A stretch of 32,000 bases of DNA from Candidatus Nitrospira inopinata (GCF_001458695.1 NZ_LN885086.1:420001-452000), one strand, 5' to 3'; positions 3,019 through 27,844 are shown, counted from the stretch's first letter. Notes: generated by a model not told the origin, from the sequence alone. Made by a program: numbers and translations.

Positions 3019-3347
3019 CGCACCTCTAGGAGTCACCTGGGCTTTGGGATGAAGCTCCGGAATGAAGGTGAAAGAGGACTCCCCATGGCTCAACTACAGT
3101 GGCTTGTAACGCTGCAACGAGGCCCCCCATACCACTCCAGCTGGAACACCGTTGCAGGCATTGCTTATGCGCATCAATCAGCTCTGCCTGGGGGTAATTC
3201 ACCTGTGAAGAGAATGAGTCTCGAAGTTTTGTTGAAATCGGTGCGAGAAGGTTTGGCGAATGGTGTTTGACACATCCACCATGCACGTATGACACCGTCA
3301 CGCCATCATGAACCTAGGAATAATAAGAAGAAAAAGGAGCAACCACC

Positions 3348-4223
3348 ATGCGACAACTGATAACTATGGCTTTCGCCGGTGCCCTCGGGCTTTCGCTTGT
3401 GAGCGCGGGCCCGGCCTTGGCCAACACAGTCTACATCGGCGATCCGACGACCGGCGGGGTGCGCTATCACCTCTGGTACCAATTTGATAATCCCGGAACC
3501 CTGTCAGCCAGAACCGGGCAGGCCTTGCCTATCAATACCAATCCCGACAATCAACATGTCGACGCCGGAAGCAACGGCCTGGTGGATACCATCGCATCAA
3601 AATCGCATTACGATCAGATCCGCCTCGGCGGCGATGCCACCAATCCTATTGAACCAGGGATTTATGGTTGGACCCACACCTCCCGCTGGGCTCTGATCGA
3701 CCTCAACCCTTTGTATGCCAATGGCCACACCGTAGTTGATGTCAACATCGCCCTCGGCCGCTACGATGACGGCACGGCGGGCCGAGAAGACTTGATCCCT
3801 GGCCTGACCGTGTGGCTAGGGAAAGAAGACTTGGGCAACTGGTCTCACACCTATGTGAACGGCATTAACTCCACTAACTGGGGAGCCTGGAACGGCGATC
3901 CTCCCTGCGCCCCGGCCGGAACCTGTTCGTATTTCCCCACCTTGGCGCAGGCCGGACTTGCCGGCCATGTCTGGGCCGATGGCGATGACCACACCAGCCC
4001 GACTGGCACGGCGTCCGTCTTTATTAATGACCTGGTGCTGGGGCCCGGTGGCAACAATTATCTGACCGTTGTCTTGGGCGGCCGCGCCGACTTGGCCTCC
4101 ACTGGCGCCGCCAAGAACTTCATCGCGTCAGTCTCCGTGGTGCCGTTGCCCGCCGCCGCTTGGCTGTTCGGGGCCGGCTTGGTCGGCTTGGCCGGCATAG
4201 CTCGCCGCCGCATGGGCGCGTAA
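3348..4223 (+). CDS. Secreted protein with C-terminal VPLPA-CTERM sorting tail
   Basis: AAGGAG RBS upstream of ATG 3348. Signal peptide (…LVSAGPALA|NTV). The C-terminus is VPLPAAAWLFGAGLVGLAGIARRRMGA. The tail resembles that of the preceding gene; the mature domains are unrelated by eye. Confidence 0.8.
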   Translation: MRQLITMAFAGALGLSLVSAGPALANTVYIGDPTTGGVRYHLWYQFDNPGTLSARTGQALPINTNPDNQHVDAGSNGLVDTIASKSHYDQIRLGGDATNPIEPGIYGWTHTSRWALIDLNPLYANGHTVVDVNIALGRYDDGTAGREDLIPGLTVWLGKEDLGNWSHTYVNGINSTNWGAWNGDPPCAPAGTCSYFPTLAQAGLAGHVWADGDDHTSPTGTASVFINDLVLGPGGNNYLTVVLGGRADLASTGAAKNFIASVSVVPLPAAAWLFGAGLVGLAGIARRRMGA

Positions 4224-4262
4224 CCTTCACTGCCGTTGTGTTCAAAGTGATCGGGCCGGATC

Positions 4263-10351: not shown

Positions 10352-11488
10352 TCAATGGGCACGAATGGCCGCGGCTCTGCCTGCGATCAATCTGGCTTGC
10401 AGCGGCTGGCCGATGTCTCTCAACAACGACGCATACCGATCCAATGTCACGGCCAACATCGGATGCTCGCGACCCATGGTTTTCTGCTGGATGACCAGCG
10501 CCCGTTCGTACCGAAGCTTCGCCTCGTCAACGAATCCCCGCTCGTGAAGCAGCCAGGCCCAATTGGCCAAAATTCTTCCTGTGAGCGGGGCGTCTGAGCC
10601 CGACGTCGCCTCACTGACGGCCAATGCCTCACGATAGTATCGGTCCGCCAGTTCCGGCAGCCCTTGGGCATGGTGCAAATTGGCGGCGTTGTTGAGCGAA
10701 ATCGCAACGGCGGGATGGCGGTCGCCGAAACGGGCCCGCCGCAGGGCCACGGCTTCTTCATACAGCGGCTCGGCATAAGCGTAGAGACCCTTCTCTTTGT
10801 ATAGAGCCGCCAGGTTGTTTAGGAGCGGGGCCTGGTTCATGGCCGCGTCCTGCTCGGCTCCTTGGAGAATAGATATCCCCAGATGAAAGAGCGCTTCCGC
10901 TTCGATAAACCGCCCCTGTTTCCGATACAGGCCGGCCAGATTGTTGTATCCGATCGCCATATCGGGATGCCCGCGGCCGAGATTTCGCTCGCCGATCTCA
11001 AGGGACCGGAGATATGCCCGCTCGGCACGTTCGAAATCTCCTTCTTCCTGATAAATCTCCGCCAGATTGTGGAGAGTGGACGCCGCCTCCGGATGATCCA
11101 ATCCGTGCGTGCGCTCCCAGATTTCCAACGCCTGCTCATAGTACGGCTTCGCCCGGTCGTACCGTCCTTCTTCTTGTAAGACCAGACCCAACTGGTTCAG
11201 CGTCGCGGCCGTTCGCGCGTCGTTCGGTCCGGCCCGTTCCAACTCACGACCGGCCAATAACAAGAGCCTCTCCGCCTCTCGATACTGAGCCTGTTCTCGC
11301 GCGGCAATCGCCGTATTGAGCAGTGCCTCCCAGTTTTCCGCCTCGTCGGCAAGAACCGGCTCGGCAAGAACCGGCAAGCAAGCAATTGCCGCCAGGATGA
11401 CGATCGTAACGCCCGCGTTCCGCAGACACTCTGTCATCATCATCCAAGGCGAACCAGTTCCTCGACTCATGCCTCTTCCCCTTCCCAT
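10352..11488 (-). CDS. Exported tetratricopeptide-repeat protein (TPR_12 / kinesin-light-chain-like repeats)
   Basis: About seven repeats of the pattern A..LNNLA.LY..QGRY.EAE.LY.RAL. N-terminal hydrophobic signal (VTIVILAAIACLPVLA). The start is ambiguous, with several in-frame ATGs between 11488 and 11437. Confidence 0.8.
   Translation of the reverse strand: MGRGRGMSRGTGSPWMMMTECLRNAGVTIVILAAIACLPVLAEPVLADEAENWEALLNTAIAAREQAQYREAERLLLLAGRELERAGPNDARTAATLNQLGLVLQEEGRYDRAKPYYEQALEIWERTHGLDHPEAASTLHNLAEIYQEEGDFERAERAYLRSLEIGERNLGRGHPDMAIGYNNLAGLYRKQGRFIEAEALFHLGISILQGAEQDAAMNQAPLLNNLAALYKEKGLYAYAEPLYEEAVALRRARFGDRHPAVAISLNNAANLHHAQGLPELADRYYREALAVSEATSGSDAPLTGRILANWAWLLHERGFVDEAKLRYERALVIQQKTMGREHPMLAVTLDRYASLLRDIGQPLQARLIAGRAAAIRAH
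11346..11375. repeat. Perfect 15-bp tandem duplication, in frame, inside the TPR gene
   Basis: tcggcaagaaccggc occurs twice (11346-11360 and 11361-11375). On the coding strand it encodes PVLAE-PVLAD at the predicted signal-peptide/mature junction. Confidence 0.9.
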
Positions 11489-11682: not shown

Positions 11683-13200
11683 TTACCATCTGGGCGTCGC
11701 TTGGTTGTTGTTTCTCACAAGGCCGTAATAGTACACCGTGACCATTTTGGGATTTCTGCCAACTCGAAACGTGGACGTGATTCGGCCACTGTTCGGATCG
11801 ATCAGTGAAACCGTGCCATTCACCCCCGACGTGGCATTGGTGACGACGACGCCCCTGGCCGAGCCGGCCCCGGCCGGTCCCGTGATCCAGAGATCCATGG
11901 CATGACTGGTCGCTAGCGGCAACGAGACTTCCCGCGCCACGTTGAGGGGATTTCGGTTGAGGATAACCAGCAGGTCTTTCCGCTGATTGGCAGCCTGCGC
12001 GACGGTCAGACCCGCCGAGTCGTTGGACGCCAACAGGTAAAGCTGACGGCCATCCGGAGTAAACTGAAACTGCGCGACACGGACGTCTTGTAAAACCGGA
12101 GCCGGAATATCCGTAAGCGTAAGCCCCCCGGACACCGTTACGTCAACGGAAGCAAACCGCGTGACGACATGATCGGAATCGGACCGGTCTTCGATGATCA
12201 CCAGCAACTCGCGGCCGTCGGGGGCCATGCCGACGTGCGAGATCGACTGCGAACCGGAGATGTGGACCTGAACCGATTTAGAAACTGGAGGGTTTTCGGT
12301 CGGATTAATCTCGATAATCTCAGACGGAGCACGGCCAGAGAGATAGGCATAAGCCTTGTCTGTCGCCTGTGACCAGAACAATCCTGTCGGCGCCGCATTA
12401 CAGTTTACAGTCGACGGCATGGCAAACTGTCTATTGCACAGATCAATCACCATAGGCAGCTCACTCCATGCCGTTCCCCCTCCGGCGATCGGAAGTCCAA
12501 GCAATACGCTGACAATCCCCGTCGTCTTGCTTGCAACAAACACAGAGCGCTGGCTCGGCGGAAGGGCAAATACCACAAAAAACTCCCCTTTCCCCGAAAG
12601 ACACACCCTCGACGTGATGCGAGGCTGTTCCCCTCCTCCAACCCCCAGATGCGAATTGTGCAGGATCGACACCGAGCCTCCATTGGTGCAGCCGGCAAGC
12701 CTGTCGATGCCGTCAGGATCGCCTTCGTTCGTCGTCCATAGTACTTCTCTGTCCACTGGATCTCGATAGATCTTCGTCGGTCGTCGGCCGACGCGCAGAT
12801 GCCCGGTCGTATCGGCCGGATTTGTCGTGATGAAATTCTCAAGAATCGGGGGCGATCCTCCGATTGGATCGATCGCCGCCACCCGATCGCCGGCCGTGTG
12901 GGTCGCGAACACCCATTCGCCCAGAGAAAACGTGACACCACCAATGGCATCGGGTTGAACCGGACCGAGCGACAAGGTACCAATGACAGGAGAAAATTTG
13001 CCGTCCAAGCGCAGCGTGGTCAGCGTCGTATCGTCTTGATTGACGACGAAGGCCATCGGCGTCGTGAGCGGGCTGTTCGGCTCCGGATCGTCTCCTCCGG
13101 TTCCACAGCCGGCAAACAATAAAACTATCACGCACGCCGACTGCCAGCCACACAGACGGAAAGGGCCGCTTCGTGCGCCTACTTGTTTCCCGTGTTTCAT
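11683..13200 (-). CDS. Beta-propeller lipoprotein (YVTN/YncE-like repeats)
   Basis: The ORF runs 11683..13242. ATG 13200 is preferred because GAGGAG lies 9 nt upstream. Lipobox LFAGC. Recurrent strand motifs typical of YVTN-type blades: FVVNQDDTTLTTLRLD, VVTNATSGVNGTVSLIDPNSGRI, VGRNPKMV. Confidence 0.6.
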   Translation of the reverse strand: MKHGKQVGARSGPFRLCGWQSACVIVLLFAGCGTGGDDPEPNSPLTTPMAFVVNQDDTTLTTLRLDGKFSPVIGTLSLGPVQPDAIGGVTFSLGEWVFATHTAGDRVAAIDPIGGSPPILENFITTNPADTTGHLRVGRRPTKIYRDPVDREVLWTTNEGDPDGIDRLAGCTNGGSVSILHNSHLGVGGGEQPRITSRVCLSGKGEFFVVFALPPSQRSVFVASKTTGIVSVLLGLPIAGGGTAWSELPMVIDLCNRQFAMPSTVNCNAAPTGLFWSQATDKAYAYLSGRAPSEIIEINPTENPPVSKSVQVHISGSQSISHVGMAPDGRELLVIIEDRSDSDHVVTRFASVDVTVSGGLTLTDIPAPVLQDVRVAQFQFTPDGRQLYLLASNDSAGLTVAQAANQRKDLLVILNRNPLNVAREVSLPLATSHAMDLWITGPAGAGSARGVVVTNATSGVNGTVSLIDPNSGRITSTFRVGRNPKMVTVYYYGLVRNNNQATPRW

Positions 13201-13242
13201 GATGCATGCTCCTCGAGCAACGGCATTGCCCATGTCCGGCAC

Positions 13243-14346
13243 CTATTGAGAAAACAGCGGGGGCGTTGCGAACGATTTGGTCACTCCCCCAAGGAAACTC
13301 GTTTCTTGCTGTAGATTCCCATTGAAATCTCGATAGATCGGAATCTGCGCGATGAAATAAATCTGCCCGAAATCGAAAGCGTTTAGGACCACCCCGGTTG
13401 AAAACGCCACAAAGGTATGGTCGGTTGTTGGAACCGACCGGCCGATCACGTTGGCATCCAGCAATTCGAGGCGGTTGATCGGATCGGTAGGATTAAACCG
13501 ATACAGCGCCGCCTCGATGTTGTCCCGATCCTTGTAGCGGAAATTAATCTGGTTGGTCAGCACAAGCCAGGGAAATGTCACCAGATTGAGACCCGCGCTG
13601 ACGGTAAATTCCTGCCCGAATCGATACCCGTCCGAGTTCCGCATCGTGTACCGATAGTTGCCAGACAGGAATTGGTTCAGGCGGTGGGGCAAAATTTCGT
13701 AGGTTTGGTAGAAACCCGGCTGAAAGCCGAATGCTCCCCTCCCGACTTGAAGTGTCGATTCAGCGAGCTGCCCGGTCACAGCCTCGTGACCATAGTCTCC
13801 AATGGGAAACCAGATCCCCATTTCCAAGACGACCATGCTGCGCAGGGTCGGAAGCACGTTGTACTTGACCTTGCCCAGAATGTCTCCAAACCCACGGTCG
13901 AACGTATTGGAGACCGCGCCCGTGCCGATCTGTCCGACGGCATCGATCATTCGGTAGGGGATTTGCACCTGAAGGCCGATCCGTTCGGTCAGTCCATAAT
14001 TCAGATCCAATGCCCCTATTTGCACCAGCGTGCGAAGCTGACTGACTTGGCTGTTGGCCAAAATCAGTTGCTTAGTCTGTTGGTTGGCGAACGGAATGGT
14101 GCTCACACCCTCGGGCGGAATGCCGTTCGGGGTATGGGTGAAATTCACGTTTACCGTCAAAACACCGGCCGGCGAGACCGCCTGTTGCGAACTGATCACC
14201 ACGAAGCAACTCGCCGATCCGCAGGACGCTTCCGCCGCTTGTTCGGAAAGACTCGCACCTTGCGCCAACAGCAGCAATAGGCAAACTAGACGTCGGACCT
14301 TCACCAATCTGCGTCTCCCGTGACAATCGTGACGGCTCATTTTCAA
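13243..14346 (-). CDS. Putative outer-membrane beta-barrel protein
   Basis: Signal-like N-terminus (RRLVCLLLLLAQGAS). The body has alternating, aromatic-rich strands and many G/N/Y/F turns. The stop abuts the downstream propeller gene. Any resemblance to MetA/phenol-degradation-type barrels is only an impression. The start is uncertain: TTG 14346, ATG 14340, or further in. Confidence 0.45.
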   Translation of the reverse strand: MKMSRHDCHGRRRLVKVRRLVCLLLLLAQGASLSEQAAEASCGSASCFVVISSQQAVSPAGVLTVNVNFTHTPNGIPPEGVSTIPFANQQTKQLILANSQVSQLRTLVQIGALDLNYGLTERIGLQVQIPYRMIDAVGQIGTGAVSNTFDRGFGDILGKVKYNVLPTLRSMVVLEMGIWFPIGDYGHEAVTGQLAESTLQVGRGAFGFQPGFYQTYEILPHRLNQFLSGNYRYTMRNSDGYRFGQEFTVSAGLNLVTFPWLVLTNQINFRYKDRDNIEAALYRFNPTDPINRLELLDANVIGRSVPTTDHTFVAFSTGVVLNAFDFGQIYFIAQIPIYRDFNGNLQQETSFLGGVTKSFATPPLFSQ

Positions 14347-14916: not shown

Positions 14917-15219
14917 TTAGAAAGAAAAGGGAGGGCCGCGAGAGAACAGCCTCAATCGCTTGAGGTCATCGATTTGGCTGTCAGACTCGACGCGCTGGAT
15001 GGCTATGAAAGAAAAAACTGGAGCGAAAACGGAATCACTTACCTCATACCCTTGCCCTACGCCACAAAACCATGCACACAACGGAGATGAATGGGTCGCC
15101 GCCTTATGATGACTATGCTGGACCTCATGGCCGACGGCCGACGGCGCCGCGAGAATGGGCACCAACAACAGGCACGCCACAAGGGGCAGGACGAGCATCT
15201 GTCGATTCAAACGAGTCAT
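14917..15219 (-). CDS. Small exported His/Cys-rich protein, paralog 1
   Basis: Signal peptide (LVLPLVACLLLVPILAAPSA). His cluster HEVQHSHHKAATH. Motif LCAWFCGVGQGYEVS. The C-terminal end is SRGPPFSF. It starts 6 nt after the TlpA stop. It is a clear paralog of 15934..16254. Confidence 0.65.
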   Translation of the reverse strand: MTRLNRQMLVLPLVACLLLVPILAAPSAVGHEVQHSHHKAATHSSPLCAWFCGVGQGYEVSDSVFAPVFSFIAIQRVESDSQIDDLKRLRLFSRGPPFSF

Positions 15220-15225
15220 GTCGCC

Positions 15226-15798
15226 TTACCGGGCCAACGCCGCTTGATCGGATTTCCCGCCTTGAATTCGATGAAACGTCTGCGCGATCTTCTCTTCCGT
15301 CAGCAGTCCGCCCTTGACGTATTCTTGCACCACGCCTTTTTCGTCGATAAAGACGCTGACCGGCAACCCGAACACGCCGAATTGATTGGCCACCTTATTG
15401 TCCCGATCCATCAAGACCGGAAATGTGTGTCCATACTGCTTGATGTGCTCGCGCACTTTGGCTTCGTCTTCTAACTCATTGACCGCGAGCACCACAAACC
15501 CTTTGTCCTTGAGCTTGTCGTAAGCCGTTTGCATCGCGGGCATTTCCGTCGTGCAGGGCTTGCACCAGGTGGCCCAGAAGTTCACAAGGACGACCTTGCC
15601 GCGATACTGACTGAGACTTTGCTGTTTTCCTTCAAGATCGATGAGTCGAAAATCCTCCGCCGGAGTCCCCACCGCCGGCACACGCGAACCCATCGCCCAC
15701 ACCAAGTGGGTTGAGAACATCAGCAGCAGAGAGAGGGCAAGCCATGCTCCCCGTTTTAGGTTGATCAATCGCAAGGGCGACCATTCTTCTCGATTCAT
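15226..15798 (-). CDS. TlpA/ResA-family periplasmic thiol:disulfide oxidoreductase
   Basis: N-terminal membrane anchor or signal, then a thioredoxin-fold block GKVVLVNFWATWCKPCTTEMP with the WCxPC active site, and a GLPVSVFID block. Confidence 0.85.
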   Translation of the reverse strand: MNREEWSPLRLINLKRGAWLALSLLLMFSTHLVWAMGSRVPAVGTPAEDFRLIDLEGKQQSLSQYRGKVVLVNFWATWCKPCTTEMPAMQTAYDKLKDKGFVVLAVNELEDEAKVREHIKQYGHTFPVLMDRDNKVANQFGVFGLPVSVFIDEKGVVQEYVKGGLLTEEKIAQTFHRIQGGKSDQAALAR

Positions 15799-15933: not shown

Positions 15934-16254
15934 TCAGGAAACGGGAGGGCCTCGCGCTACTATGACGTAGGAATGGATGATGGAAGCTTGCTCGCCTACC
16001 CGATGCTCAATCCATTCGGACGGGAATTCTTCCCAAAGTCGCGGAGCAACCGAGACTTCCCACCCCTGTCCGGCAACGCATGACCAAGCACAGAGTACAG
16101 TGTTGTGATGAGAGGACGGTTGATGATGGGAGCGATGATCAAAATCGTGCGACACCGACTGCCCGATTGCCAGCCCGCCGACCGACAACACGCAGCCAAC
16201 AACAAGGATCGAAAGAACTCTCACAACACCGCGATTCATCATGACGGCTCGCAC
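15934..16254 (-). CDS. Small exported His/Cys-rich protein, paralog 2
   Basis: Signal peptide (VRVLSILVVGCVLSVGGLAIG). His cluster HDFDHRSHHQPSSHH. Motif LCAWSCVAGQGWEVS. The C-terminal end is ARGPPVS. The start is GTG 16254 or ATG 16242/16239. Confidence 0.65.
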   Translation of the reverse strand: MRAVMMNRGVVRVLSILVVGCVLSVGGLAIGQSVSHDFDHRSHHQPSSHHNTVLCAWSCVAGQGWEVSVAPRLWEEFPSEWIEHRVGEQASIIHSYVIVARGPPVS

Positions 16255-19921: not shown

Positions 19922-21650
19922 GTTGATCTTTAGACGCTTCCTACCGTTCATTCAGCCGTACGTGACGCGGATGCTGGCAAGCGGCCTCCTCGTCATGAGC
20001 GTGGCCGCCGTCAATCTGGCCTTGCTTCGATTGACAGGCGCGCTGTGGGACGTCATCACGGTCCGCCAAGATGCCGACCGAATGACGGAACTGATCGGCG
20101 TCTTGCTCGGGCTCGTGCTTCTCCAAGGCCTCTGCACGATGGGGCACAGCTATCTGACCGCATGGGTGTCTCAGCGAATCATGGCCGACTTCCGCCGGCA
20201 CGTCTTTGCGCATTTGCAGACGCTGGACGTCAAGTTCTTCGCCCGCCGACGAACCGGCGAGCTGCTGTCTCGATTAATGAACGACGTCGGAATCATCCAG
20301 TCGGTCGCGACGGAACTGCCGATCGACAGCGCAAAACAGCTTGTCACGTTCGTCGGCGGACTGGCCTTTCTGTTCACGATGAATTGGCGTCTCTCGCTCC
20401 TGATCTTGATTCTTCTCCCGTTGTTGGTGTTGGTCGCCAAAATGTTCGGACGCAGGCTCAAGGCGCTCTCCCTGTCACTTCAGGACCAGACCGCCGCCCT
20501 CAACACCTTGGCCGAGGAAGTGATTTCCGGCATCCGCATCGTCAAATCGTTCGTGCAGACAAAGCGCGAAGAAGAGCGATTTTCAGCGCAGATCGATCAA
20601 ACCCTCCGTGTCACCATGCGCCGAGCCGGCATCATGGCCCTGTTCATCCCGACCATCAGCCTGCTCACCTTTTCCATCGCGGCCGCCGTCATCTGGTACG
20701 GAGGCCGGCAAGTGGTCGAGGGCGCCATCACCCCCGGCGATCTGTTCGCCTTCATCTTGTTTGCGGGCATCCTGATCGGTCCCTTCAGCTCGGCCGCCCG
20801 TGTCTTCTCGCAGGTGAAAGAGGCCCAGGGCGCCATGCAGCGGGTGTTCGAAATACTGGACGTGGAACCGGCCGTTCAAGACCAACCGGGAGCGATCGTC
20901 CTCTCCACGGTGACCGGCCACGTGCGGTTCGAAGACGTCGGCTTCGCCTATGATCCACGCGCCCCCGTTCTCTCGCACGTATCGTTCGAGGCCAAGCCCG
21001 GCGAGGTCATCGCGATCGTCGGACCGACCGGCGCCGGAAAGACGACCGTCGTCAATCTGCTCCACCGATTCTACGACCCGACCGAAGGTCGAATCATGAT
21101 CGACGATTACGATCTGAAACAGGTGACCGTCGAGAGTTGGTATCGGCAACTGGCGCTGGTTCCGCAGGAAACCATTTTGTTCGGCGGCACCATTCTGGAC
21201 AACGTTCGCTACGGAAATCCCGCCGCCGATGAGCCGGAAATAGAGCGCGCCTGCAAGGCGGCGCATGCCCACGACTTTATTATGAGTTTGCCCGACAGGT
21301 ATCGAACCATCGTCGGAGAAAAGGGCATCAACCTCTCAGGAGGGCAGCGTCAACGCCTTGCGATCGCGCGGGCGATTCTAAAGAACCCGCGCGTCTTGCT
21401 GCTGGATGAAGCCACGTCCTCTCTCGACAGCGAGTCGGAACGTCTGGTCCAAGAAGCCCTCAATCGCCTGATGCACGGGAGGACGACGTTCATCGTCGCC
21501 CATCGGCTTTCCACCGTCCAACACGCCGACCGCATTCTTGTCCTGGACAAAGGCCGTCTCGTTGAAGAAGGCACCCACGCCCAGCTCATGGAGCGCAAGG
21601 GCCTCTATCACTATCTGTACACAATCCGCCTGAACGATCCGGTGGGATAG
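19920..21650 (+). CDS. ABC exporter, fused permease/ATPase (MsbA/ABCB-like)
   Basis: Six-TM N-terminal half. Walker A GPTGAGKTT, signature LSGGQRQR, Walker B LLLDEATSSLD, and an H-loop region VAHRLST. An in-frame TAG lies 9 nt upstream of ATG 19920, so the start cannot be further upstream. Confidence 0.9.
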   Translation: MLIFRRFLPFIQPYVTRMLASGLLVMSVAAVNLALLRLTGALWDVITVRQDADRMTELIGVLLGLVLLQGLCTMGHSYLTAWVSQRIMADFRRHVFAHLQTLDVKFFARRRTGELLSRLMNDVGIIQSVATELPIDSAKQLVTFVGGLAFLFTMNWRLSLLILILLPLLVLVAKMFGRRLKALSLSLQDQTAALNTLAEEVISGIRIVKSFVQTKREEERFSAQIDQTLRVTMRRAGIMALFIPTISLLTFSIAAAVIWYGGRQVVEGAITPGDLFAFILFAGILIGPFSSAARVFSQVKEAQGAMQRVFEILDVEPAVQDQPGAIVLSTVTGHVRFEDVGFAYDPRAPVLSHVSFEAKPGEVIAIVGPTGAGKTTVVNLLHRFYDPTEGRIMIDDYDLKQVTVESWYRQLALVPQETILFGGTILDNVRYGNPAADEPEIERACKAAHAHDFIMSLPDRYRTIVGEKGINLSGGQRQRLAIARAILKNPRVLLLDEATSSLDSESERLVQEALNRLMHGRTTFIVAHRLSTVQHADRILVLDKGRLVEEGTHAQLMERKGLYHYLYTIRLNDPVG

Positions 21651-21659
21651 GATCGAGCG

Positions 21660-21686
21660 CCGACGGCGACGACGTCGGTCTTTTGG
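21660..21686 (+). terminator. Putative intrinsic terminator of the ABC-exporter gene
   Basis: Stem ccgacg / cgtcgg (21660-21665 with 21673-21678) with a 7-nt loop, followed by tcttttggg, 10 nt after the stop. Confidence 0.5.
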
Positions 21687-21724
21687 GTGTCGATCTTTCG
21701 ACCTCGAGGGAAAATCTTCTTTTC

Positions 21725-22381
21725 TTATTTAACTTTGGAAAAATCGGCGGGAATTCGCACTTCCTGACCGTCTTGCAAGTTCACGACGAAGACCGACTTC
21801 GCATTCGGATCGAATTGCTCATAGGCGAAGAGCGCGGTAAACCGAGAGCGAAACGCTGGGCCATTGCCTTCTTCGTTCTTGCGTCCGCGTTCGGCCCGCC
21901 CGATATCGACGGGCTTGATCCGTTTGGCGCCTTGGTGCAATTCAACGAGGGCCCCTTCGGCAAAGTACTCGTCATCGCCGCACAGTTGGACTTCGACTTC
22001 CATGTTGGGCATGTCCAACACTTTTTTCACGAATTCCTCCGGCATCCGCACTTCGACCTTGCGTTTCTTGGACTCCACCGCCTCTTGACGACCAAAGGCC
22101 TCAAGCCGATACCGCTTGGTCCGTAAGATCGCGCTGGCGCCGCATGGATCTTTCTCCGGATCGGCTCCCACGCGGCTGGACAACGACGCCTGTTGCAACA
22201 CTTTCTTAATGTCTTCGGGCAGTTCGGCTTTCTCCATTGGAAGCCTTCCGCTTTCCAATGTTTTACGGGCCTCCTCAAGGGACAAATTTACGTCGATGGC
22301 ATGAGAAACTCCGTAGGTGACGGCAGATGCCCCAACCAGGGCGGCCGCCAGCCACGCTTTTCCGACTCGATGCGACGTCAT
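21725..22381 (-). CDS. Secreted hypothetical protein
   Basis: AGGGAG lies upstream of ATG 22381. Signal peptide (KAWLAAALVGASAVTYGVSHA). The mature part is charged and lysine-rich. I recognise no family. Confidence 0.55.
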   Translation of the reverse strand: MTSHRVGKAWLAAALVGASAVTYGVSHAIDVNLSLEEARKTLESGRLPMEKAELPEDIKKVLQQASLSSRVGADPEKDPCGASAILRTKRYRLEAFGRQEAVESKKRKVEVRMPEEFVKKVLDMPNMEVEVQLCGDDEYFAEGALVELHQGAKRIKPVDIGRAERGRKNEEGNGPAFRSRFTALFAYEQFDPNAKSVFVVNLQDGQEVRIPADFSKVK

Positions 22382-22475
22382 ACTCTTTCTCGACTCCCTT
22401 TCATTCGTTCAACGCCGGCTCTCATGCGTTGTGACAACACCGAGGCATTGTAGGGAAACCATCTCCGGTATGCAA

Positions 22476-23108
22476 TCAGCTCGCAAACCGAGACCAGTTC
22501 GGATAAGGCGTTCGTCGATACAAGGCTGCCACTTCCTCTTGCGCGACCGGATAACCGGCAAGCCGCAACAGACCCGCAACGACGCTCAAGGGAAACCCGA
22601 CGACCGTTGTGTAATCACCCTCGATCTTTTCGATCAAATCCGCCCCGCTCCCTTGAATGGAGTAGCTTCCGGCCTTGCCCAAGAACTCTCCGGTCTCAAG
22701 ATACCGTTCAATCCCGCCGCCGTCGGGTTTCATGTGGACGACGGCCGTCGCAACATCCACCCGTTCGATGGATCGCGCTTGATGACAGAGGGCCACGGCG
22801 GTATGGACCTGATGAGGTCGTCCTGCGAGGCTCGTCAGCATGCGGCGGGCATCTTCCCTGTCGCGAGGCTTCCCCAGAAAGCGGCCATCGGACTCGATCA
22901 CGGTATCACCGCCCAACACAATGTCGCCGGGTCGCGCCCCCGCAACGGATCGCGCCTTCTCCAAGGCAAAGTGCGCCACCTGCTCGCGAGGGACGAGGCC
23001 GGACGTCGGTTGTTCGACAAAACTCGGCTCGCAGACGTCGAAAGGCACTCCCAAAAGACCGAGCAGCTCCCGGCGACGCGGCGACGTCGATGCCAAGACT
23101 ATCCGCAT
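22476..23108 (-). CDS. maf: Maf-family nucleoside-triphosphate pyrophosphatase
   Basis: MRIVLASTSPRRRELLGLLGVPFDV…, GKAGSYSIQG. The start overlaps the dus stop by 10 nt. Confidence 0.85.
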   Translation of the reverse strand: MRIVLASTSPRRRELLGLLGVPFDVCEPSFVEQPTSGLVPREQVAHFALEKARSVAGARPGDIVLGGDTVIESDGRFLGKPRDREDARRMLTSLAGRPHQVHTAVALCHQARSIERVDVATAVVHMKPDGGGIERYLETGEFLGKAGSYSIQGSGADLIEKIEGDYTTVVGFPLSVVAGLLRLAGYPVAQEEVAALYRRTPYPNWSRFAS

Positions 23109-24265
23109 CGCGAGACCGGTTCCAGTTCATCATCGACTCCCTCCGTCAGAGCCGGGAGAAGTCGGTCGTTCAGATAATCGTCCAAAATGGATTCAAGTTC
23201 GCCGATGGAAGACACGCGCACCATCCGCGCGCGAAGCGCGGCCGCACGGGGAAATCCTTTGCAATACCAGGCCAGGTGCTTGCGCATGCGATAGAACCGA
23301 TTGGGTCCGCAGAACGCTTCAAATTGACGGGCGTGATCCAGCAAGACGGCGAATCGCCGGCTCAGCGGGACCTCTTGCTCATCCCACCCGACATCCGCTT
23401 CGTTCGTCCGCTGTACAACCGTGCGGGCCCGTTCCTTCTCCCTAAAAAACCACGGCGCGCCGAGAACGGATCGCCCGACCAACACGCCGTCCACTCCCGT
23501 CTCACGAACGCGCGTCGCCGCTTCATGAAGGCTCTGGATATCGCCGTTTCCCAACAACAGGATACCCGTCCCTCCGACCATTCTCGCCGCGCGAGCAATG
23601 GCCGACCAATCCGCCGAGCCGCGATACATCTGCTTAAGCGTCCGCCCGTGAAGGGAGATCGCCGCCGGACGTTCCGCCACCAACTGCTCGAGCCATGGCT
23701 CCACCGTCACGGCGTCATAGCCGATCCTCGTTTTAACGGAAAGCGGAATGGAGCGACGCTCGACCCGTGCTTGACCTCCACGGCGCTCATTGAGCCGGCG
23801 AAACACCGCCGCCTTCTCGGGCTGGAATCCGGCTTGCTCCAGCGTCCTGCCACTCGCCCAGTCGTCGATTCCACGCTTCGCCTCTCGGATGATGGCCCGC
23901 GCCAATTCCGGAGTCCTGATCAACCCCGCGCCGGACCCGGACGAGGCCACGCTCTTGGATGGGCAACCCATGTTGATGTCCAACCCGTCAAACCCCAGTT
24001 CGCACACGGCGTAGGCGGCCCGATAAAACAGACCGGGATTGTTCCCGTAGAGCTGCGCCACGATCGGGCGCTCGATCTCGCTGTAGATAAGGGTGTCCAG
24101 CAGATGCTCGGGACCGAGACAGACGTCGTGCACATGCGTGAATTCCGTGAAGATGACGTCCGGTTTTCCCTGCTGCGCAACGACGGAGCGAAAGCCCGCG
24201 TCCGTAACGCCGTCCATGGGAGCAAGGCCGATGACAGGGCGAGGCAACGTCTCCCAAAAGTTCAC
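23099..24265 (-). CDS. tRNA-dihydrouridine synthase (Dus family) with C-terminal extension
   Basis: GLAPMDGVTDAGFR, FDGLDINMGCP, LHGRT, GNGDI. GTG start at 24265, one nt after the TGA of the upstream gene. Confidence 0.85.
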   Translation of the reverse strand: MNFWETLPRPVIGLAPMDGVTDAGFRSVVAQQGKPDVIFTEFTHVHDVCLGPEHLLDTLIYSEIERPIVAQLYGNNPGLFYRAAYAVCELGFDGLDINMGCPSKSVASSGSGAGLIRTPELARAIIREAKRGIDDWASGRTLEQAGFQPEKAAVFRRLNERRGGQARVERRSIPLSVKTRIGYDAVTVEPWLEQLVAERPAAISLHGRTLKQMYRGSADWSAIARAARMVGGTGILLLGNGDIQSLHEAATRVRETGVDGVLVGRSVLGAPWFFREKERARTVVQRTNEADVGWDEQEVPLSRRFAVLLDHARQFEAFCGPNRFYRMRKHLAWYCKGFPRAAALRARMVRVSSIGELESILDDYLNDRLLPALTEGVDDELEPVSRCG

Positions 24266-24266
24266 G

Positions 24267-25820
24267 TCACACCCACCCTACCGCCTGCGGAGACGGCTCG
24301 TTGGCAAGGTCATAGGCCCGTCTGAGTTCGTCGGCCTCCCGTTCGGCGACATCGATCAATTCCGGAACCGCTTGGCGGACGAATTCCACGAACATCGATA
24401 TCTTGACCAGAAAGAAATCGTACGAACCTTCCATCGTCCTGGGACGTTCAAACCAAAAGGACACGAACGTGGAGAGCGGCACCCTCTTCTCGTCGAGCCG
24501 TCCGCAGGATTCCGGAAACATCGCGCGCACGTCGCCTCCCCAGAACAGGACCTCGTAAGGAAGATAGACGGATCGATACAGGTCCAGCTCATCGATGCAG
24601 GCTGTCGGCTGGGTCCACTCCGGTCCGCCCGGCTCAGCTTGTCCGGAAACGACGCGGGCATATCGTTCGTAGGCCGATTCGAGCGCCGATCTGACGGCGG
24701 CCGACGTGCATTGTTTTTGAGTCGTTTGCGTCTCCTCATCCCAACAGAGCGTCTTCTTGGGTCGCCGCCCCTGCGAGAAAACTCGCGCATAACGTTCCTG
24801 AAACTCCGAGAATTCTTTCACGATCAGCGGAACCGCCTTCGTGTCCACCTCCAGCGCAAGCCCTCGCAGATTGGTCAAGCGTGGATTCCCGAGAATCCGA
24901 TCCAGCATCTCGAACAGAAGCGGCGGGATGGGAGCGCCATGGGCGTCTATCCAAGAGGGGGGGCGATCCGTCTGTTCCCGACGCGGACAGACTCCTGGAA
25001 CGCTCTCGTCGGCGGCATGGAGGTCGAGACCGGCGACGTGGATTTGGACGACGCGATGCAAGGGAAACTCTTCAAGAAATCCATCGACGAATTGCTCAAG
25101 GGAAGCCGTTCGCCAAGCCCCTGAGTAACGAAACACGGTCCACAGATGCCCGACATCGAGCACGAGCCCGCAGGGGGCGGCCTGGGTAATAAGACGGAAA
25201 AACGTCGGGATCGGCAGGGTGCCCGCCACAAAATAGGTCAATGGAGGCAGCTCGAGAAGCAGCAACGGGGAGCGGCCGTTCACGAAGCCATCATGCCGAT
25301 CAAGCATGGTTTGCGCGACCATTGCATTTTCGGCCACCACGGCCGCACCGGCTTCGGTATAAAGCGGCGGCAAATAGGTTCCATACGAATAACCGGCGAT
25401 AGATTTGGCGGCGCATTCGTGTGTCAGCCATGCGCTGTCGAGCACCGACAGGTGGCGCGCGATCTCATCTACCTCCTTAAGAAACACCGGATCTTCATGA
25501 ACGCCTGGCTGCGTTAGCCACAATCCTTCTCCATGGTACGGAGTCAAACCTTCTCCCATCCGGTTCCTGACGGCGGCCAACGCCGCGGGAACCGCGCGAA
25601 AGATCTCCATATAGTCGGGAAACACTTGACGTTGGCACAGCGTTCCAAGCAAGGTAAAGATATCGGGGGAGTAGACGTCGAGGGAAAGGCCCAGCCCATG
25701 AAGCGGGACCTGCTCAAGACGACGGAGGAACGATCGCTCGACGAGATCCGAAGTCTCCATACCATTCATTTGTGACGCGCCAAAGCGCCTAGAGTGTACG
25801 CCTTGAAACCATTGAATCAC
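24267..25820 (-). CDS. DUF692/MNIO-family (MbnB/TglH/BufB-like TIM-barrel) enzyme fused to a DUF2063-like C-terminal domain
   Basis: The N-terminal ~300 aa are collinear with the UPF0276/DUF692 consensus as I recall it: HGLGLSL, DYMEIF, YHGEGLWL, AWLTHECA, YLPPLYTE, PLLLLELPPLTYF, CGLVLDVGHLW, RVVQIHVAGLD. The C-terminal ~170 aa (LDLYRSVYLPYEVLFWGGDVRAMFPESCGRL…FVSFW…FFLVKISMFVEFV) resemble the N-terminal helical part of DUF2063 partner proteins. The start is uncertain: GTG 25820, ATG 25769 or ATG 25760. Confidence 0.7.
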   Translation of the reverse strand: MIQWFQGVHSRRFGASQMNGMETSDLVERSFLRRLEQVPLHGLGLSLDVYSPDIFTLLGTLCQRQVFPDYMEIFRAVPAALAAVRNRMGEGLTPYHGEGLWLTQPGVHEDPVFLKEVDEIARHLSVLDSAWLTHECAAKSIAGYSYGTYLPPLYTEAGAAVVAENAMVAQTMLDRHDGFVNGRSPLLLLELPPLTYFVAGTLPIPTFFRLITQAAPCGLVLDVGHLWTVFRYSGAWRTASLEQFVDGFLEEFPLHRVVQIHVAGLDLHAADESVPGVCPRREQTDRPPSWIDAHGAPIPPLLFEMLDRILGNPRLTNLRGLALEVDTKAVPLIVKEFSEFQERYARVFSQGRRPKKTLCWDEETQTTQKQCTSAAVRSALESAYERYARVVSGQAEPGGPEWTQPTACIDELDLYRSVYLPYEVLFWGGDVRAMFPESCGRLDEKRVPLSTFVSFWFERPRTMEGSYDFFLVKISMFVEFVRQAVPELIDVAEREADELRRAYDLANEPSPQAVGWV

Positions 25821-25869
25821 AAGCGTTTCACGGTATCACGGCGAACAAGGACCGTCTGCTATACTTGGC

Positions 25870-26694
25870 ATGCCACAGGCTCCGGAAACCGGATGGTCCG
25901 GAGTGGAAGAACCCGGCCGATCGATGCCAAATAAGGGAAACGACCCGCCGATGGCCGCCAACCACGGGGATACAGTGGTCGCCCATATGATGACACCAGG
26001 CGTCGTTCAAATTCCCGGCGACGTTTCCGTCACAGAAGCGGCCTCGCTTATGGAACGGGAACGGATGCCCTGTCTGCTTGTCAAGGACACAGAGGCGTCT
26101 TACGGGCTCATGACGCCCACGGATATCGTCAGGAAAGTGGTGGCCCAGGGCCTGGAACCGGATGATATCGAAGTAAGAACGATCATGACCCAACCGGTGC
26201 AATTCATCGAGTATGATCGTCTAGTCGATGAGGCCTCCACACTCATGATGTCCAGCGGCTCGCCTATCCTGATCGTGACAAAAGAGCAACTGCCGGTCGG
26301 CGTCCTCACCGTCAGAGACTTGATTCTCTCCCCTCAACGGCGGGCGGTGCAAATTCCGGCCGTCATTCAAGTGCTGGAGGAAAGCGATCCGCCGCGCGAG
26401 TGCCAGGCCGTCATCGTGCAACTCAGTCACGTTGGCGCGCTGGTCCAGTCTCTCCTCTCCTTGCTACCCGACACTCCCGTCCTCCTGAGTTTTTCTCTTC
26501 CCGATTTTGTCACACCCTTGACCATCCGAGGAACGGTCGTGGCCCACCCTGGACGGATCGGAAGCACCGGCGATACCCTTCGGTCTTCGCAAGCGACTAC
26601 CGAAATTCAATTTTCCGACCTTTCCCCGTCGGACCAGTCGAAAATCAAGGCTTGGATGCTCCAGCACGCGACAACCGATCGCGACCTCCCGTAG
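25870..26694 (+). CDS. CBS-pair protein with C-terminal PilZ-like domain
   Basis: Two CBS-like units (VAHMMTPGVVQIP…LLV and IMTQPVQFIE…ILIV…VGVLTVRDLI). These are followed by QRRAVQIP…VQLSHVGALV, which resembles the PilZ RxxxR…(D/N)xSxxG motifs with Q at the second Arg and at the D/N position. The start is uncertain: 25870, 25924 or 25951. Confidence 0.6.
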   Translation: MPQAPETGWSGVEEPGRSMPNKGNDPPMAANHGDTVVAHMMTPGVVQIPGDVSVTEAASLMERERMPCLLVKDTEASYGLMTPTDIVRKVVAQGLEPDDIEVRTIMTQPVQFIEYDRLVDEASTLMMSSGSPILIVTKEQLPVGVLTVRDLILSPQRRAVQIPAVIQVLEESDPPRECQAVIVQLSHVGALVQSLLSLLPDTPVLLSFSLPDFVTPLTIRGTVVAHPGRIGSTGDTLRSSQATTEIQFSDLSPSDQSKIKAWMLQHATTDRDLP

Positions 26695-26788
26695 TCGATG
26701 CTCCTCTTGGACTTCTTGACGGATCTTTGACCGCCGGACGATCCGTTGATACAATTTCCGTGAACTTTTTACGACCAGAGACTACCCC

Positions 26789-27844
26789 ATGAATATATCC
26801 ACGCGATCTCAGCAGATTCGTGAGCGCCTCTCCCCGTCCAAAGAGGAAATCCTCCAACAGGTCGGCGCCTTGCTCGACAGGCCGGAGGACGATCTGCGCC
26901 TCACGCTCATGAAAGAACTGTTGTGCAACCTCTTTAAGCTCCATGATGCGAATCTCGATCTGCTCGATCTCAAAATCGTCAACCGAGCGGTCAAGGAGCT
27001 TCGCCACGCGTTTTGCGTGTTTCGAAGTTATCGCGACCGGAAAAAGATCAGCATCTTCGGCTCGGCCAGAACGCCGTCGGATGATCCCAACTACCAATTG
27101 GCCTCCCGCTTCGCGCGAGCCGTTGTCCGAGCGGGGTTCATGGTCATCACCGGAGGAGCGGACGGGATTATGCGCGCCGCCCAGGAAGGGGCCGGACGCG
27201 AGAATAGTTTCGGCGTCAATATCATGCTCCCCTTTGAGCAAGGCCCCAACAACATCATCGCCGACGACCCGAAACTGATCACGTTCAAGTATTTTTTTAC
27301 CAGAAAATTGATGTTTCAAAAGGAAGCGGATGCCATCGCGCTGTTTCCCGGCGGATTCGGCACCCATGACGAAGGCTTCGAGATCCTGACGTTGGCTCAA
27401 ACCGGAAAAAGCGATCCGCAACCGATCGTCTGCCTTCAGACGCCGGACTGTGATTACTGGAACGATTGGGAGGGGTTCATCAGAAAGCAACTCTTGGAAC
27501 GCCGGCTGATCAACGAAGACGACCTGAGCCTGTTTGCGATCATGGATTCCGCCGATGCGGCCGTCGATCACATTCTCCGCTTCTATCGTCGGTACCACTC
27601 CATCCGGTTCGTCGGACGGCAGTTGTCCATGCGGCTGAACTCGCCCATTTCCCCCGAACAGCTCGAATTCGTTCGGGAACGGTTCGGCGATCTCTTGGCC
27701 GAGGGCCGATTCGAATTGCGCGGCCCCTTGGAGGAAGAGCTCGACGAACCGGCGTTGCAGCACCTGCCTCGGCTGGTGTTTACGTTCAACCGTCGGAGCG
27801 CGGGACGACTCCGTCAGTTGATCGATCATCTCAACTCGCTCTGA
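26789..27844 (+). CDS. LOG / TIGR00730-family Rossmann-fold nucleotide-binding protein (PpnN/YgdH-like)
   Basis: ISIFGSAR, VITGGADGIMRAAQEGA, and PGGFGTHDEGFE (the PGGxGTxxE LOG motif). It carries additional N- and C-terminal segments relative to minimal LOG proteins. Confidence 0.8.
   Translation: MNISTRSQQIRERLSPSKEEILQQVGALLDRPEDDLRLTLMKELLCNLFKLHDANLDLLDLKIVNRAVKELRHAFCVFRSYRDRKKISIFGSARTPSDDPNYQLASRFARAVVRAGFMVITGGADGIMRAAQEGAGRENSFGVNIMLPFEQGPNNIIADDPKLITFKYFFTRKLMFQKEADAIALFPGGFGTHDEGFEILTLAQTGKSDPQPIVCLQTPDCDYWNDWEGFIRKQLLERRLINEDDLSLFAIMDSADAAVDHILRFYRRYHSIRFVGRQLSMRLNSPISPEQLEFVRERFGDLLAEGRFELRGPLEEELDEPALQHLPRLVFTFNRRSAGRLRQLIDHLNSL

Follow-up and report, generated by a model that had tools for sequence, protein, structure and literature searches.

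Candidatus Nitrospira inopinata encodes a multinuclear non-haem iron oxidase (MNIO, DUF692) among housekeeping genes, and the question this locus raises is what such an enzyme could modify there. To our knowledge, the characterised MNIOs all belong to RiPP clusters in which the precursor gene lies next to them. The initial annotation of the window (the whole 32,000-nt stretch analysed here, NZ_LN885086.1:420001-452000) described an MNIO fused to its partner, coupled to dus and maf and with no precursor in sight, and offered two explanations: a peptide encoded elsewhere or a non-canonical substrate, possibly not a peptide. The locus does not have the make-up of a classical RiPP cluster. Judging from the sequence, structural models and analogy, we see about an even chance that the gene encodes an active MNIO that carries a fused partner-like domain and works on a polypeptide outside of any such cluster.

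A divergent MNIO with a fused helical domain

The three minus-strand ORFs are where the initial annotation placed them (24267..25820, 23099..24265 and 22476..23108). The first of these is maximal from a GTG at 25820 and gives the 517 aa originally proposed, but the homologues are, with few exceptions, about 497 aa long, with alignments beginning at residue 1-9, so the start is probably the ATG at 25760 (24267..25760, minus strand, 497 aa plus stop). It encodes a true, though very divergent, member of the MNIO family. The Pfam profile PF05114 (MbnB_TglH_ChrH, cutoff 25) matches the 517-aa ORF at 43.4 bits (E=3.2e-11) and the N-terminal 328 aa alone at 45.1 bits (E=1e-11). The alignment spans part of the profile (positions 64-245 of 263), and the NCBIfam MNIO equivalogs all score far under their cutoffs (ApyH 28.8 against 400 bits, BufB (NF050167) 26.9 against 310 and HvfB 20.6 against 360).

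The fold agrees with this assignment. In the AF2 model (pLDDT 86.7, pTM 0.89), residues 1-330 (24771..25760, minus strand) form a TIM barrel of eight beta strands, and the top six PDB fold matches found with Foldseek are all MbnB chains (E 2e-9 to 9e-8, TM 0.77-0.81 to target), the best being 7fc0_B and 7dz9_A (E=2e-9, TM 0.78-0.81 normalised to MbnB). In MbnB and TglH, a set of His, Asp and Glu residues binds two or three irons. Alignment and spacing indicate that all nine ligand positions of TglH (H71, H107, E151, D184, N187, H216, D229, H231 and E258; PMC10880893) are filled here, seven by identical residues and two by other ligating residues. Seven of the candidate ligands (H76, E170, D202, H241, D272, H274 and E304) are invariant both in the clade and in canonical MNIOs. 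At the other two positions, Asn187 of TglH is replaced by His205, and His107 aligns with Glu115, with His114 beside it. The residues at the ligand positions do not vary in 35 homologues. The six blocks first listed (HGLGL, YHGEG, THECA, LLELP, LDVGH and IHVAG) all occur and vary little or not at all among homologues, and D-A-H and L-E-V-D can be added to them as ligand blocks.

Beyond the barrel, a variable linker (aa 331-350; 24711..24770, minus strand), modelled with low confidence (pLDDT <50 at residues 332-346) and lacking a consensus in the homologue alignment, leads into a family-specific C-terminal domain (aa 351-497; 24270..24710, minus strand). Modelled alone, this domain consists of helices only (AF2, pLDDT 82.8), and it is kept in distant fused relatives (hmmsearch E 1e-38 to 5e-11). 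The domain had been read as DUF2063-like, a resemblance that is not supported, every sequence and profile test having been negative. For example, PF09836 finds no match at E<=10 in the MNIO or in 26 homologous C-terminal segments, and hhalign of the domain alignment against 24 PF09836 proteins gives a probability of 0.56% over 9 aligned columns, both alignments being of low diversity. The fusion itself holds as a conserved extra domain, with a weak resemblance to a partner: the closest PDB fold match is TglI (8hi7_A, chain A of 8HI7; PMC12353581), which is non-significant in Foldseek (E=1.1, probability 0.75, TMq 0.49). MbnC (7dz9_C) also appears in the list at E=7.7, 3dee does not, and nothing reaches E<=1e-3. 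Profile comparisons were negative as well when the domain was set against the gene that follows an unfused MNIO of a sister clade or against the C-terminal parts of other long MNIOs. Since the TglI match is non-significant and these comparisons and those with DUF2063 were negative, the proposal that the domain may serve as an in-built partner or as a module for binding the substrate is one of analogy.

An operon conserved throughout the Nitrospiraceae

The TGA of the MNIO gene is followed by one nucleotide and the GTG start of dus, and dus overlaps maf by 10 nt (ATGCGGATAG), just as first described. The second gene (23099..24265, minus strand) encodes a DusB-like tRNA-dihydrouridine synthase of 388 aa (Pfam Dus E=6e-55). 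It scores 213 bits with the DusB equivalog TIGR00737, under the cutoff of 293, its PDB sequence matches are 1vhn and DusB 6ei9, and it has the catalytic Cys of the G-C-P motif (DINMGCPSKSV, aligned with DLNAGCPVRKV of 1vhn). The third (22476..23108, minus strand) encodes a Maf-family nucleotide pyrophosphatase of 210 aa (PF02545 E=2e-51, 175 bits; TIGR00172 151.2 bits, above the cutoff of 117.15). Both family assignments of the initial annotation are thus sound.

Downstream of maf by 94 nt lies a gene for a hypothetical secreted protein of 218 aa, here called P218 (21725..22381, minus strand), with a signal peptide and two Cys (in PCG and LCG), which falls in neither a Pfam nor an NCBIfam family. 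The operon probably ends with this gene. On the other side, a divergent gene encodes the expected CBS-pair/PilZ-like protein (25870..26694, plus strand; Pfam CBS E=1e-11, PilZ 20.3 bits, just under cutoff), and it adjoins the MNIO gene in every Nitrospiraceae locus with enough flank. The rest of the window holds housekeeping genes, including secA, purK, an ABC exporter and a rhomboid gene.

The arrangement is not an accident of one genome. The whole block, from the CBS/PilZ-like gene through MNIO, dus and maf to P218, is kept in about 75 distinct Nitrospiraceae loci, and the linkage of the MNIO to dus and maf holds throughout the family, down to 44-47% MNIO identity. The gap between MNIO and dus is -4 nt in 32 and +1 nt in 35 of 75 distinct related loci, and the 10-nt overlap of dus and maf recurs in 71 of the 75. 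Since this spacing is kept while the next gene downstream, the ABC exporter, comes and goes, selection for co-expression is suggested, at least in stoichiometry. The MNIO is probably co-translated with dus and maf and co-transcribed with the P218 gene.

No small precursor gene is present at the locus, where the intergenic gaps of 109, 94 and 74 nt leave no room for one, and none is adjacent in the related loci examined. To this extent the earlier reading of the locus was correct, but it overlooked P218 and a Cys-bearing tail on Dus. Also confirmed is the absence of a separate partner gene (MbnC, TglI, DUF2063/BufC or ChrI), both in the window and in the related loci examined; this would be explained if the fused helical domain does the partner's job.

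The MNIO clade of these nitrite-oxidising bacteria is small, very divergent and part of the Nitrospiraceae core genome. A search of 1.84 billion proteins returned 197 representatives at E<=1e-3. Among GTDB species representatives, 301 encode a relative, and the best 80 of the 301 are essentially all Nitrospira or other Nitrospiraceae. The full-length relatives found are all fused (466-508 aa, down to 31-34% identity), and none has an obvious adjacent small precursor. The distant ones examined (31-45% identity) from other Nitrospirota and the Leptospirales lack adjacent dus and maf, as do unassigned metagenome contigs, so the dus/maf linkage is lineage-specific. Outside the Nitrospiraceae, the MNIO gene follows gltBD, stands alone beside a convergent LPG synthase gene, comes after rml sugar genes or sits between TPR, lipoprotein and CheZ genes. 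Of the three distinct contexts examined in the Leptospirales-type branch, two have the MNIO gene overlapping a lipoprotein gene with conserved Cys. With neighbors that vary by lineage, context gives no consistent clue to the substrate.

Comparison with known MNIO systems

One close parallel to a barrel with a helical partner is TglH-TglI of Pseudomonas syringae (3-thiaglutamate; PDB 8HI7). There the MNIO, a TIM barrel that shares all nine ligand positions with the Nitrospira protein, depends on a helical module clamped to it. The target of TglHI is a C-terminal Cys. TglI, the top fold match of the C-terminal domain here, is a separate protein with an RRE domain for binding the TglA leader, whereas the Nitrospira module is fused, has no sequence similarity to it and lacks the beta-strand/RRE part. 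No RRE-type (winged-helix/beta-strand) domain appears in the MNIO models, the C-terminal part having no strands, and no TglA- or TglB-like gene is present at the locus. In the methanobactin system MbnB-MbnC (PDB 7DZ9, 7FC0 and 7TCR), MbnB is the closest barrel structure and shares the multinuclear iron ligand set. However, the Nitrospira barrel is about 60 residues longer, with insertions, has 12-15% sequence identity to MbnB with no phmmer or profile match to MbnB sequences, and is encoded at a locus without an MbnA-like precursor, an MbnC gene or transport genes.

The bufferin systems (DUF692, DUF2063 and DoxX, with a Sec-signal Cys precursor) likewise pair an MNIO, BufB, with a helical partner, BufC, and they act on Cys proteins exported through Sec, a description that P218 would fit. 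They differ in that the BufB model gives 27 bits here against its cutoff of 310, the C-terminal domain does not match DUF2063, and the DUF2282 and DoxX genes of the canonical operons used for comparison (L095 and L096) are missing. Also comparable are the “PME-type 2” MNIO partners, which are helix-rich, have no Pfam DUF2063 signature, often lack a full RRE and were found only via HHpred to TglI/3dee and AlphaFold models (Microb Genom 2025, PMC12452194). The domain described here is also helical and without that signature, but 3dee is not among its fold matches, and PME-type 2 partners are described as separate genes after the MNIO gene; the main text of that paper mentions neither an MNIO-partner fusion nor the Nitrospira clade (PMC12452194). 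Other long MNIOs, namely P0268 (497 aa), P0258 (445 aa), P0260 (471 aa) and P0248 (646 aa), also carry 150-350 extra residues without a Pfam signature. Their barrels are canonical, however (PF05114 at 115-138 bits for the first three and 67 bits for P0248), and their extensions have no detectable relation to the domain here.

What the enzyme may act on

Taken by analogy with these systems, the TIM barrel with its full His/Asp/Glu set would bind iron and presumably uses O2 to oxidise a residue of a polypeptide, most likely a Cys. The helical domain of about 150 aa most likely replaces the separate partner (TglI, MbnC or BufC) and would cap the active site and keep the substrate in place. Rather than an adjacent small precursor peptide, the substrate would be one of the operon's proteins or the product of a gene elsewhere. 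Beside the two options first proposed there is now a third, that the substrate may be a full-size protein of the same operon, either P218 or Dus through its tail.

It is also possible, though we lean against it, that the MNIO is functionally unrelated to dus, maf and P218, that its target is encoded elsewhere and that the gene order is an inherited housekeeping arrangement. The ordinary genes of the window and the unrelated contexts of the fused relatives outside the Nitrospiraceae fit such hitch-hiking, and sizeable proportions of bufferin precursors are genetically unlinked to MNIO genes (PMC12452194). Against it stands the start/stop coupling of -4 or +1 nt, which persists across the related loci despite the divergence of the MNIO, while the ABC exporter varies.

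If an operon protein is the substrate, one candidate is the C-terminal tail of Dus (aa 364-388; 23102..23176, minus strand), which is acidic, ends in S-R-C-G and lies past the canonical fold, since similarity to solved Dus structures stops near residue 363 and leaves about 25 extra residues. The MNIO, its stop coupled to the dus start, would modify the near-C-terminal Cys on this flexible tail much as TglHI modifies the C-terminal Cys of TglA-Cys. Variable as the tail is, 70 of 74 distinct loci share the ending SRC[S/G], with synonymous changes in the Ser codon (TCA, TCG and TCC), and in two lineages without the dus/maf overlap (ASVCPS and SQSCVP) a Cys persists at a distance of two or three residues from the C-terminus. 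However, the conservation of the Cys is partly forced because the TG of its codon doubles as the TG of the maf ATG in most loci. Also, fused MNIOs outside the Nitrospiraceae have no dus beside them, and we know of no MNIO that acts on a folded enzyme. Modification of the Dus tail is, on this evidence, unlikely.

The first reading's hint at a substrate related to tRNA or nucleotides is weakened too. That the clade has abandoned peptide chemistry and takes tRNA, a modified nucleotide or some other small molecule as its substrate, in a pathway with Dus and Maf, also seems improbable. It has in its favor the tight linkage, throughout the Nitrospiraceae, with genes for two enzymes that belong to pyrimidine-nucleotide and tRNA metabolism, the absence of both a precursor gene and any RRE-type domain, together with a fold common to endonuclease IV, which acts on nucleic acid with a trinuclear metal site (Foldseek E ~2e-6). 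But the linkage is missing in the rest of the family members examined, the top structural match is MbnB and not endonuclease IV, and every characterised MNIO acts on a polypeptide (PMC13174530; PMC11002830).

Least likely of all is P218 as the substrate, modified at one or both Cys-Gly sites before Sec export as bufferins and oxazolins are. In its favor, Sec-exported Cys proteins are among the known MNIO substrates (PMC12452194), and almost every Nitrospiraceae locus has the gene about 65-108 nt after maf, no terminator-like site being seen between the two. P218 also has a signal peptide and two Cys, the latter without variation in 67 of 67 sequences, and a Cys-bearing lipoprotein gene overlaps the MNIO gene in two of the contexts from the Leptospirales-type branch. 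But two housekeeping genes separate enzyme from putative substrate, and P218 is far more conserved than the MNIO (66-99% identity where the MNIO has 44-90%), as expected of a folded, functional protein whose Cys pair may simply be a disulphide. Its sequence is unrelated to those lipoproteins, and no relatives outside Nitrospira are among its best 120 matches.

With an active, fused MNIO acting on a polypeptide as the preferred reading, what the Nitrospiraceae carry in their core genome is an undescribed clade of these oxidases, one that is probably self-partnered and that most likely modifies a protein.

The MNIO gene, its product and its clade

The initial annotation had described an orphan MNIO, an enzyme of the PF05114/DUF692 family, fused to a DUF2063-like partner and coupled to dus and maf, and the observation was largely right, although the DUF2063 label proved unsupported. 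The three packed minus-strand ORFs that it had called are all present. They encode the MNIO (24267..25820, 517 aa from a GTG), Dus (23099..24265, 388 aa; Pfam Dus, E=6e-55) and Maf (22476..23108, 210 aa; Pfam Maf, E=2e-51), and the junctions have the proposed 1-nt spacing and 10-nt overlap: one C separates the TGA of the MNIO gene from the GTG of dus, and dus ends in ...CGA TGC GGA TAG, whose internal ATG is the maf start. The length of 517 aa stands for the maximal ORF, but the true start is probably the ATG at 25760 (METSDL...) and not the GTG at 25820, since almost all homologues are about 497 aa, and the probable protein is of that length (497 aa). Dus looks canonical, with the catalytic Cys of G-C-P present and homology to 1vhn and DusB extending to residue about 363. 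Compared to solved Dus structures, it has a ~40-aa insertion between the conserved barrel halves (residues about 134-174), which is why Pfam and phmmer split its match into two stretches. Maf is above its TIGR00172 cutoff. Upstream of the MNIO lies a divergent CBS/PilZ gene (25870..26694, plus strand) with a Pfam CBS pair and a PilZ match just below threshold.

The assignment of the enzyme half to DUF692 held up in a profile check, in which the protein matched Pfam PF05114 (MbnB_TglH_ChrH) with E=3.2e-11 and 43.4 bits (cutoff 25), a match that is real, though weak and partial. The NCBIfam equivalogs for the MNIOs ApyH, BufB and HvfB reach 21-29 bits, below their cutoffs of 310-400. Searched against PDB sequences, the protein and its profile gave a sole match, the uncharacterised DUF692 protein 3BWW (E=7e-3 and 5e-6), and did not reach MbnB or TglH. 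The AlphaFold2 model, for which 35 homologues were used, is confident (pLDDT 86.7, pTM 0.89) and has a complete eight-stranded barrel. Its top six PDB fold matches are MbnB chains, with E down to 2e-9 and TM of 0.77-0.81 to the target, and endonuclease IV and sugar epimerases of the same superfold rank below them.

The iron ligands of TglH are H71, H107, E151, D184, N187, H216, D229, H231 and E258 (PMC10880893). When the window protein is aligned with members of its clade of divergent fused MNIOs, with the unfused MNIOs of a sister clade and with canonical long MNIOs, H76, E170, D202, H241, D272, H274 and E304 are invariant; among the 35 close homologues E115, H205 and E78 are invariant as well, and H114 nearly so. 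By spacing and strand order, the position of TglH H107 is taken here by E115, with H114 beside it, and that of N187 by H205. The invariant columns and these replacements indicate that all nine ligand positions are filled by predicted metal-binding residues, and the metal site on which the initial annotation depended appears in the alignment as kept rather than lost.

Homologues mark the source of the window as a Nitrospira. Searched without a filter, 1.84 billion representative proteins gave only 197 matches at E<=1e-3, many of them fragments. Full-length clade members are 466-508 aa, with identity ranging from 64% down to about 34%, and those that are named come from Nitrospira, Nitrospiraceae, other Nitrospirota and Leptospirales MAGs. 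A relative is encoded by 301 stretches of the GTDB species-representative genomes, and the best 80 of these stretches are essentially all from Nitrospira or Nitrospiraceae. This spread is that of a core gene and lacks the patchiness of a natural-product cluster. The nearest relatives without the fusion (about 300 aa, 25-30% identity) score higher against PF05114 and group apart from the clade; one of them directly precedes a separate 245-aa gene. Two such sister-clade MNIOs of ~300 aa (L099:274-1936 and L098:4492-5915, in fetched related loci) have the motifs YHHEG, PENPP and LDLGH in common. In one sister-clade case the 245-aa gene starts 1 nt after the MNIO, and in another an overlapping upstream gene encodes a 169-aa secreted Lys-rich protein. 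A published genome table gives Leptospirillum ferrooxidans one DUF692, zero DUF2063 and zero bufferin precursor, and the anaerobe Thermodesulfovibrio zero of all three (PMC12452194). A search of a paper library found no description of the clade, of Nitrospira with DUF692 or of a fusion between an MNIO and its partner. The window MNIO belongs to an undescribed, divergent clade.

The fused C-terminal domain

The barrel is followed by a variable linker, modelled at low confidence by AlphaFold2, and then by a domain of residues about 351-497, which when modelled alone has eight helices and zero strands (pLDDT 82.8). The DUF2063 identity first proposed for this C-terminus could not be sustained. 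Neither the window sequence nor 26 homologous segments matched PF09836 at E<=10, and hhalign against 24 PF09836 proteins, a DUF2063/BufC reference set from classical plasmid bufferin operons (DUF2282-DUF692-DUF2063-DoxX), gave a probability of 0.6%, so the family assignment was dropped. A profile of the domain recovers the C-termini of distant fused relatives with E from 1e-38 to 5e-11, which marks it as clearly conserved within the clade. The profile gives no signal of kinship with the extensions of other long MNIOs or with BufC, and a profile comparison gave none with the 245-aa gene that follows the sister-clade MNIO of L099.

Among 350,000 PDB chains, no fold was significantly similar to the domain. 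The top match, itself non-significant, is TglI (8hi7_A; E=1.1, probability 0.75, TMq 0.49), and MbnC is also among the non-significant matches listed. In 8hi7, chain A is TglI, which partners the MNIO TglH (PMC12353581). Also, the MNIO partners called “PME-type 2” are helix-rich, lack the DUF2063 signature and often an RRE, and are recognised through HHpred matches to TglI and 3dee (PMC12452194). Given the top fold match and this precedent, it is a reasonable working analogy, though not a demonstrated homology, that the domain is a built-in partner-like module. Four other long MNIO proteins of 445-646 aa (P0268, P0258, P0260 and P0248) have canonical barrels and C-terminal extensions without a Pfam signature, unrelated to the domain described here. 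With long MNIOs carrying unrelated extensions, fusions to unrecognised modules apparently arose at least twice.

The operon and its surroundings

To assess linkage, the window proteins were compared by tblastn with all the loci fetched. Wherever a Nitrospiraceae locus has sufficient flank, the CBS/PilZ gene stands divergent from a block of MNIO, dus, maf and the gene for P218, a protein of 218 aa with a signal peptide and no known family that is encoded after maf (21725..22381, minus strand). The block is kept even in two lineages with an MNIO only 44% and 47% identical; the ABC exporter beyond it is often missing from the flank. Over 75 distinct loci, the gap from MNIO to dus is -4 nt in 32 and +1 nt in 35, dus and maf overlap by 10 nt in 71, and the P218 gene starts about 65-108 nt after maf. 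In Nitrospiraceae, the MNIO is predicted to be translationally coupled to dus and maf. An Rfam search of 21000-27000 found no riboswitch or other RNA family at E<=1, and a promoter and terminator scan gave nothing above shuffled expectation, with no convincing terminator inside the block.

The adjacency is thus conserved throughout these Nitrospiraceae loci and is not accidental to one genome, but it is gone in other lineages. A fused relative in a Nitrospirota MAG has the context gltB-gltD-MNIO, another is an isolated gene beside a convergent LPG synthase gene, another stands between rml sugar genes and a membrane protein, and a Leptospirales-type branch has the order TPR-MNIO-lipoprotein-CheZ/MCP. 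No neighbour shared across the whole clade was found, and in the loci examined dus and maf accompany the enzyme only in Nitrospiraceae. Strong conservation of the operon is confined to one bacterial family and does not extend to the enzyme clade as a whole. Genes for c-di-GMP signalling or chemotaxis adjoin clade members in both lineages, which could be coincidence: CBS-PilZ (25870-26694, plus strand) on the Nitrospiraceae side, and CHASE3-GGDEF, GAF-PAS-GGDEF-EAL, CheZ and MCP-CZB genes near the MNIO in the Leptospirales-type loci L084, L091 and L093.

The intergenic gaps around the operon are only 74, 94 and 109 nt, too short to fit a precursor gene, in agreement with the small precursor that the initial annotation had failed to see there. 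The window has only two credible small Cys-rich ORFs, minus-strand paralogues with 35% identity (14917-15219 and 15934-16254) that flank a gene for a ResA/TlpA-like thiol-disulphide oxidoreductase (15226-15798, minus strand). In both, a signal peptide is combined with a His-rich stretch and the motif LCAW(F/S)C..GQG(Y/W)EVS, and neither has a family assignment. In five metagenome loci their relatives adjoin homologues of a 367-aa ORF (13243-14346) and never this MNIO; they were rejected as its substrates for this reason and are treated as a separate system, which may handle metal. Large ORFs of 257, 291, 630, 519 and 367 aa, at 2245-6155 (plus strand) and 11683-14346 (minus strand), have no Pfam match at E<=1e-3, and their neighbours include a di-haem cytochrome c peroxidase-like gene (53-2020) and the gene of a TPR protein (10352-11488).

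What marks the clade is a metal site kept intact in the alignment, a clade-specific helical domain fused to the barrel, the lack of a partner or precursor gene, and the standing of a core gene in Nitrospiraceae. The reading we favour, with confidence evenly balanced, is that the fused helical domain would hold a polypeptide substrate at the enzyme, which would oxidise one of its residues, probably a Cys, in an iron- and O2-dependent reaction, the substrate being encoded other than as a classical adjacent precursor. The likelihoods given here to its rivals overlap partly with it. The strongest of these, possible but doubtful, is that the MNIO simply hitch-hikes in the operon and that its substrate is encoded remotely. 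A non-peptide substrate is improbable; one in the form of tRNA or nucleotides, to which the dus/maf linkage might point, is made less likely because that linkage disappears outside Nitrospiraceae.

Candidate substrates and significance

Under the favoured reading of a polypeptide held by the helical domain, one candidate is the C-terminal tail of Dus (23102-23176, minus strand), an acidic, sequence-variable stretch of about 25 aa past the canonical fold. In 70 of 74 distinct loci its last residues are S-R-C-S or S-R-C-G, placing a Cys near the C-terminus of a flexible tail, the type of site that TglHI modifies. The MNIO could capture this tail through its helical domain and oxidatively modify the conserved Cys (SRC[S/G]-COOH), a proposal that we consider improbable. 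The neighbouring enzyme, translated directly after the MNIO, would in that case stand in for the missing precursor. The overlap of dus and maf alone favours a Cys here, because the TG of its codon doubles as the TG of the maf start codon. On the other side, the tail Ser codon varies synonymously (TCA 33, TCG 26, TCC 4), and two lineages without the overlap end in ...ASVCPS and ...SQSCVP, keeping a Cys two or three residues from the end. If the Dus tail is modified in this way, this would be the first MNIO to tailor a housekeeping tRNA-modifying enzyme and not a natural-product peptide.

A second candidate, likewise improbable, is P218, the most conserved gene product of the block (66-99% identical where the MNIO is 44-90%). 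Its two Cys, one in PCG and one in LCG, occur without exception in all 67 sequences compared. Of its 1422 relatives, the best 120 all belong to Nitrospira. In the Leptospirales-type branch, the MNIO gene overlaps a gene for a lipoprotein of 143 or 254 aa in two of three distinct contexts examined (L084:9466-10230 and L093:8419-8850). These two proteins are homologous to each other (E=2e-16), each with a lipobox, one or two beta-sandwich-like repeats and conserved ...FCP... and ...HC(P/A)P... motifs; in that branch they may serve the MNIO as protein substrates. A comparison found no homology between them and P218. Taken together, the Dus tail, P218 and these lipoproteins suggest that the targets of the clade may be Cys residues in full-size proteins, not in small precursor peptides.

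MNIOs are a fast-growing enzyme family and, to our knowledge, all members characterised so far build peptide natural products, work with a separately encoded partner and have the precursor gene next to their own. The present clade departs on all three counts: its module is fused and specific to it, a precursor gene is missing, and its neighbours are core-genome housekeeping genes. The locus supplies two concrete candidates that can be tested by MS, the C-terminal Cys tail of Dus and the 218-aa secreted protein. In soils, waters and wastewater plants nitrite is oxidised mainly by Nitrospira, essentially all of which have this MNIO. The identity of its substrate would reveal either a use of MNIOs in ordinary protein maturation or non-peptide chemistry, or a hidden RiPP of Nitrospira.
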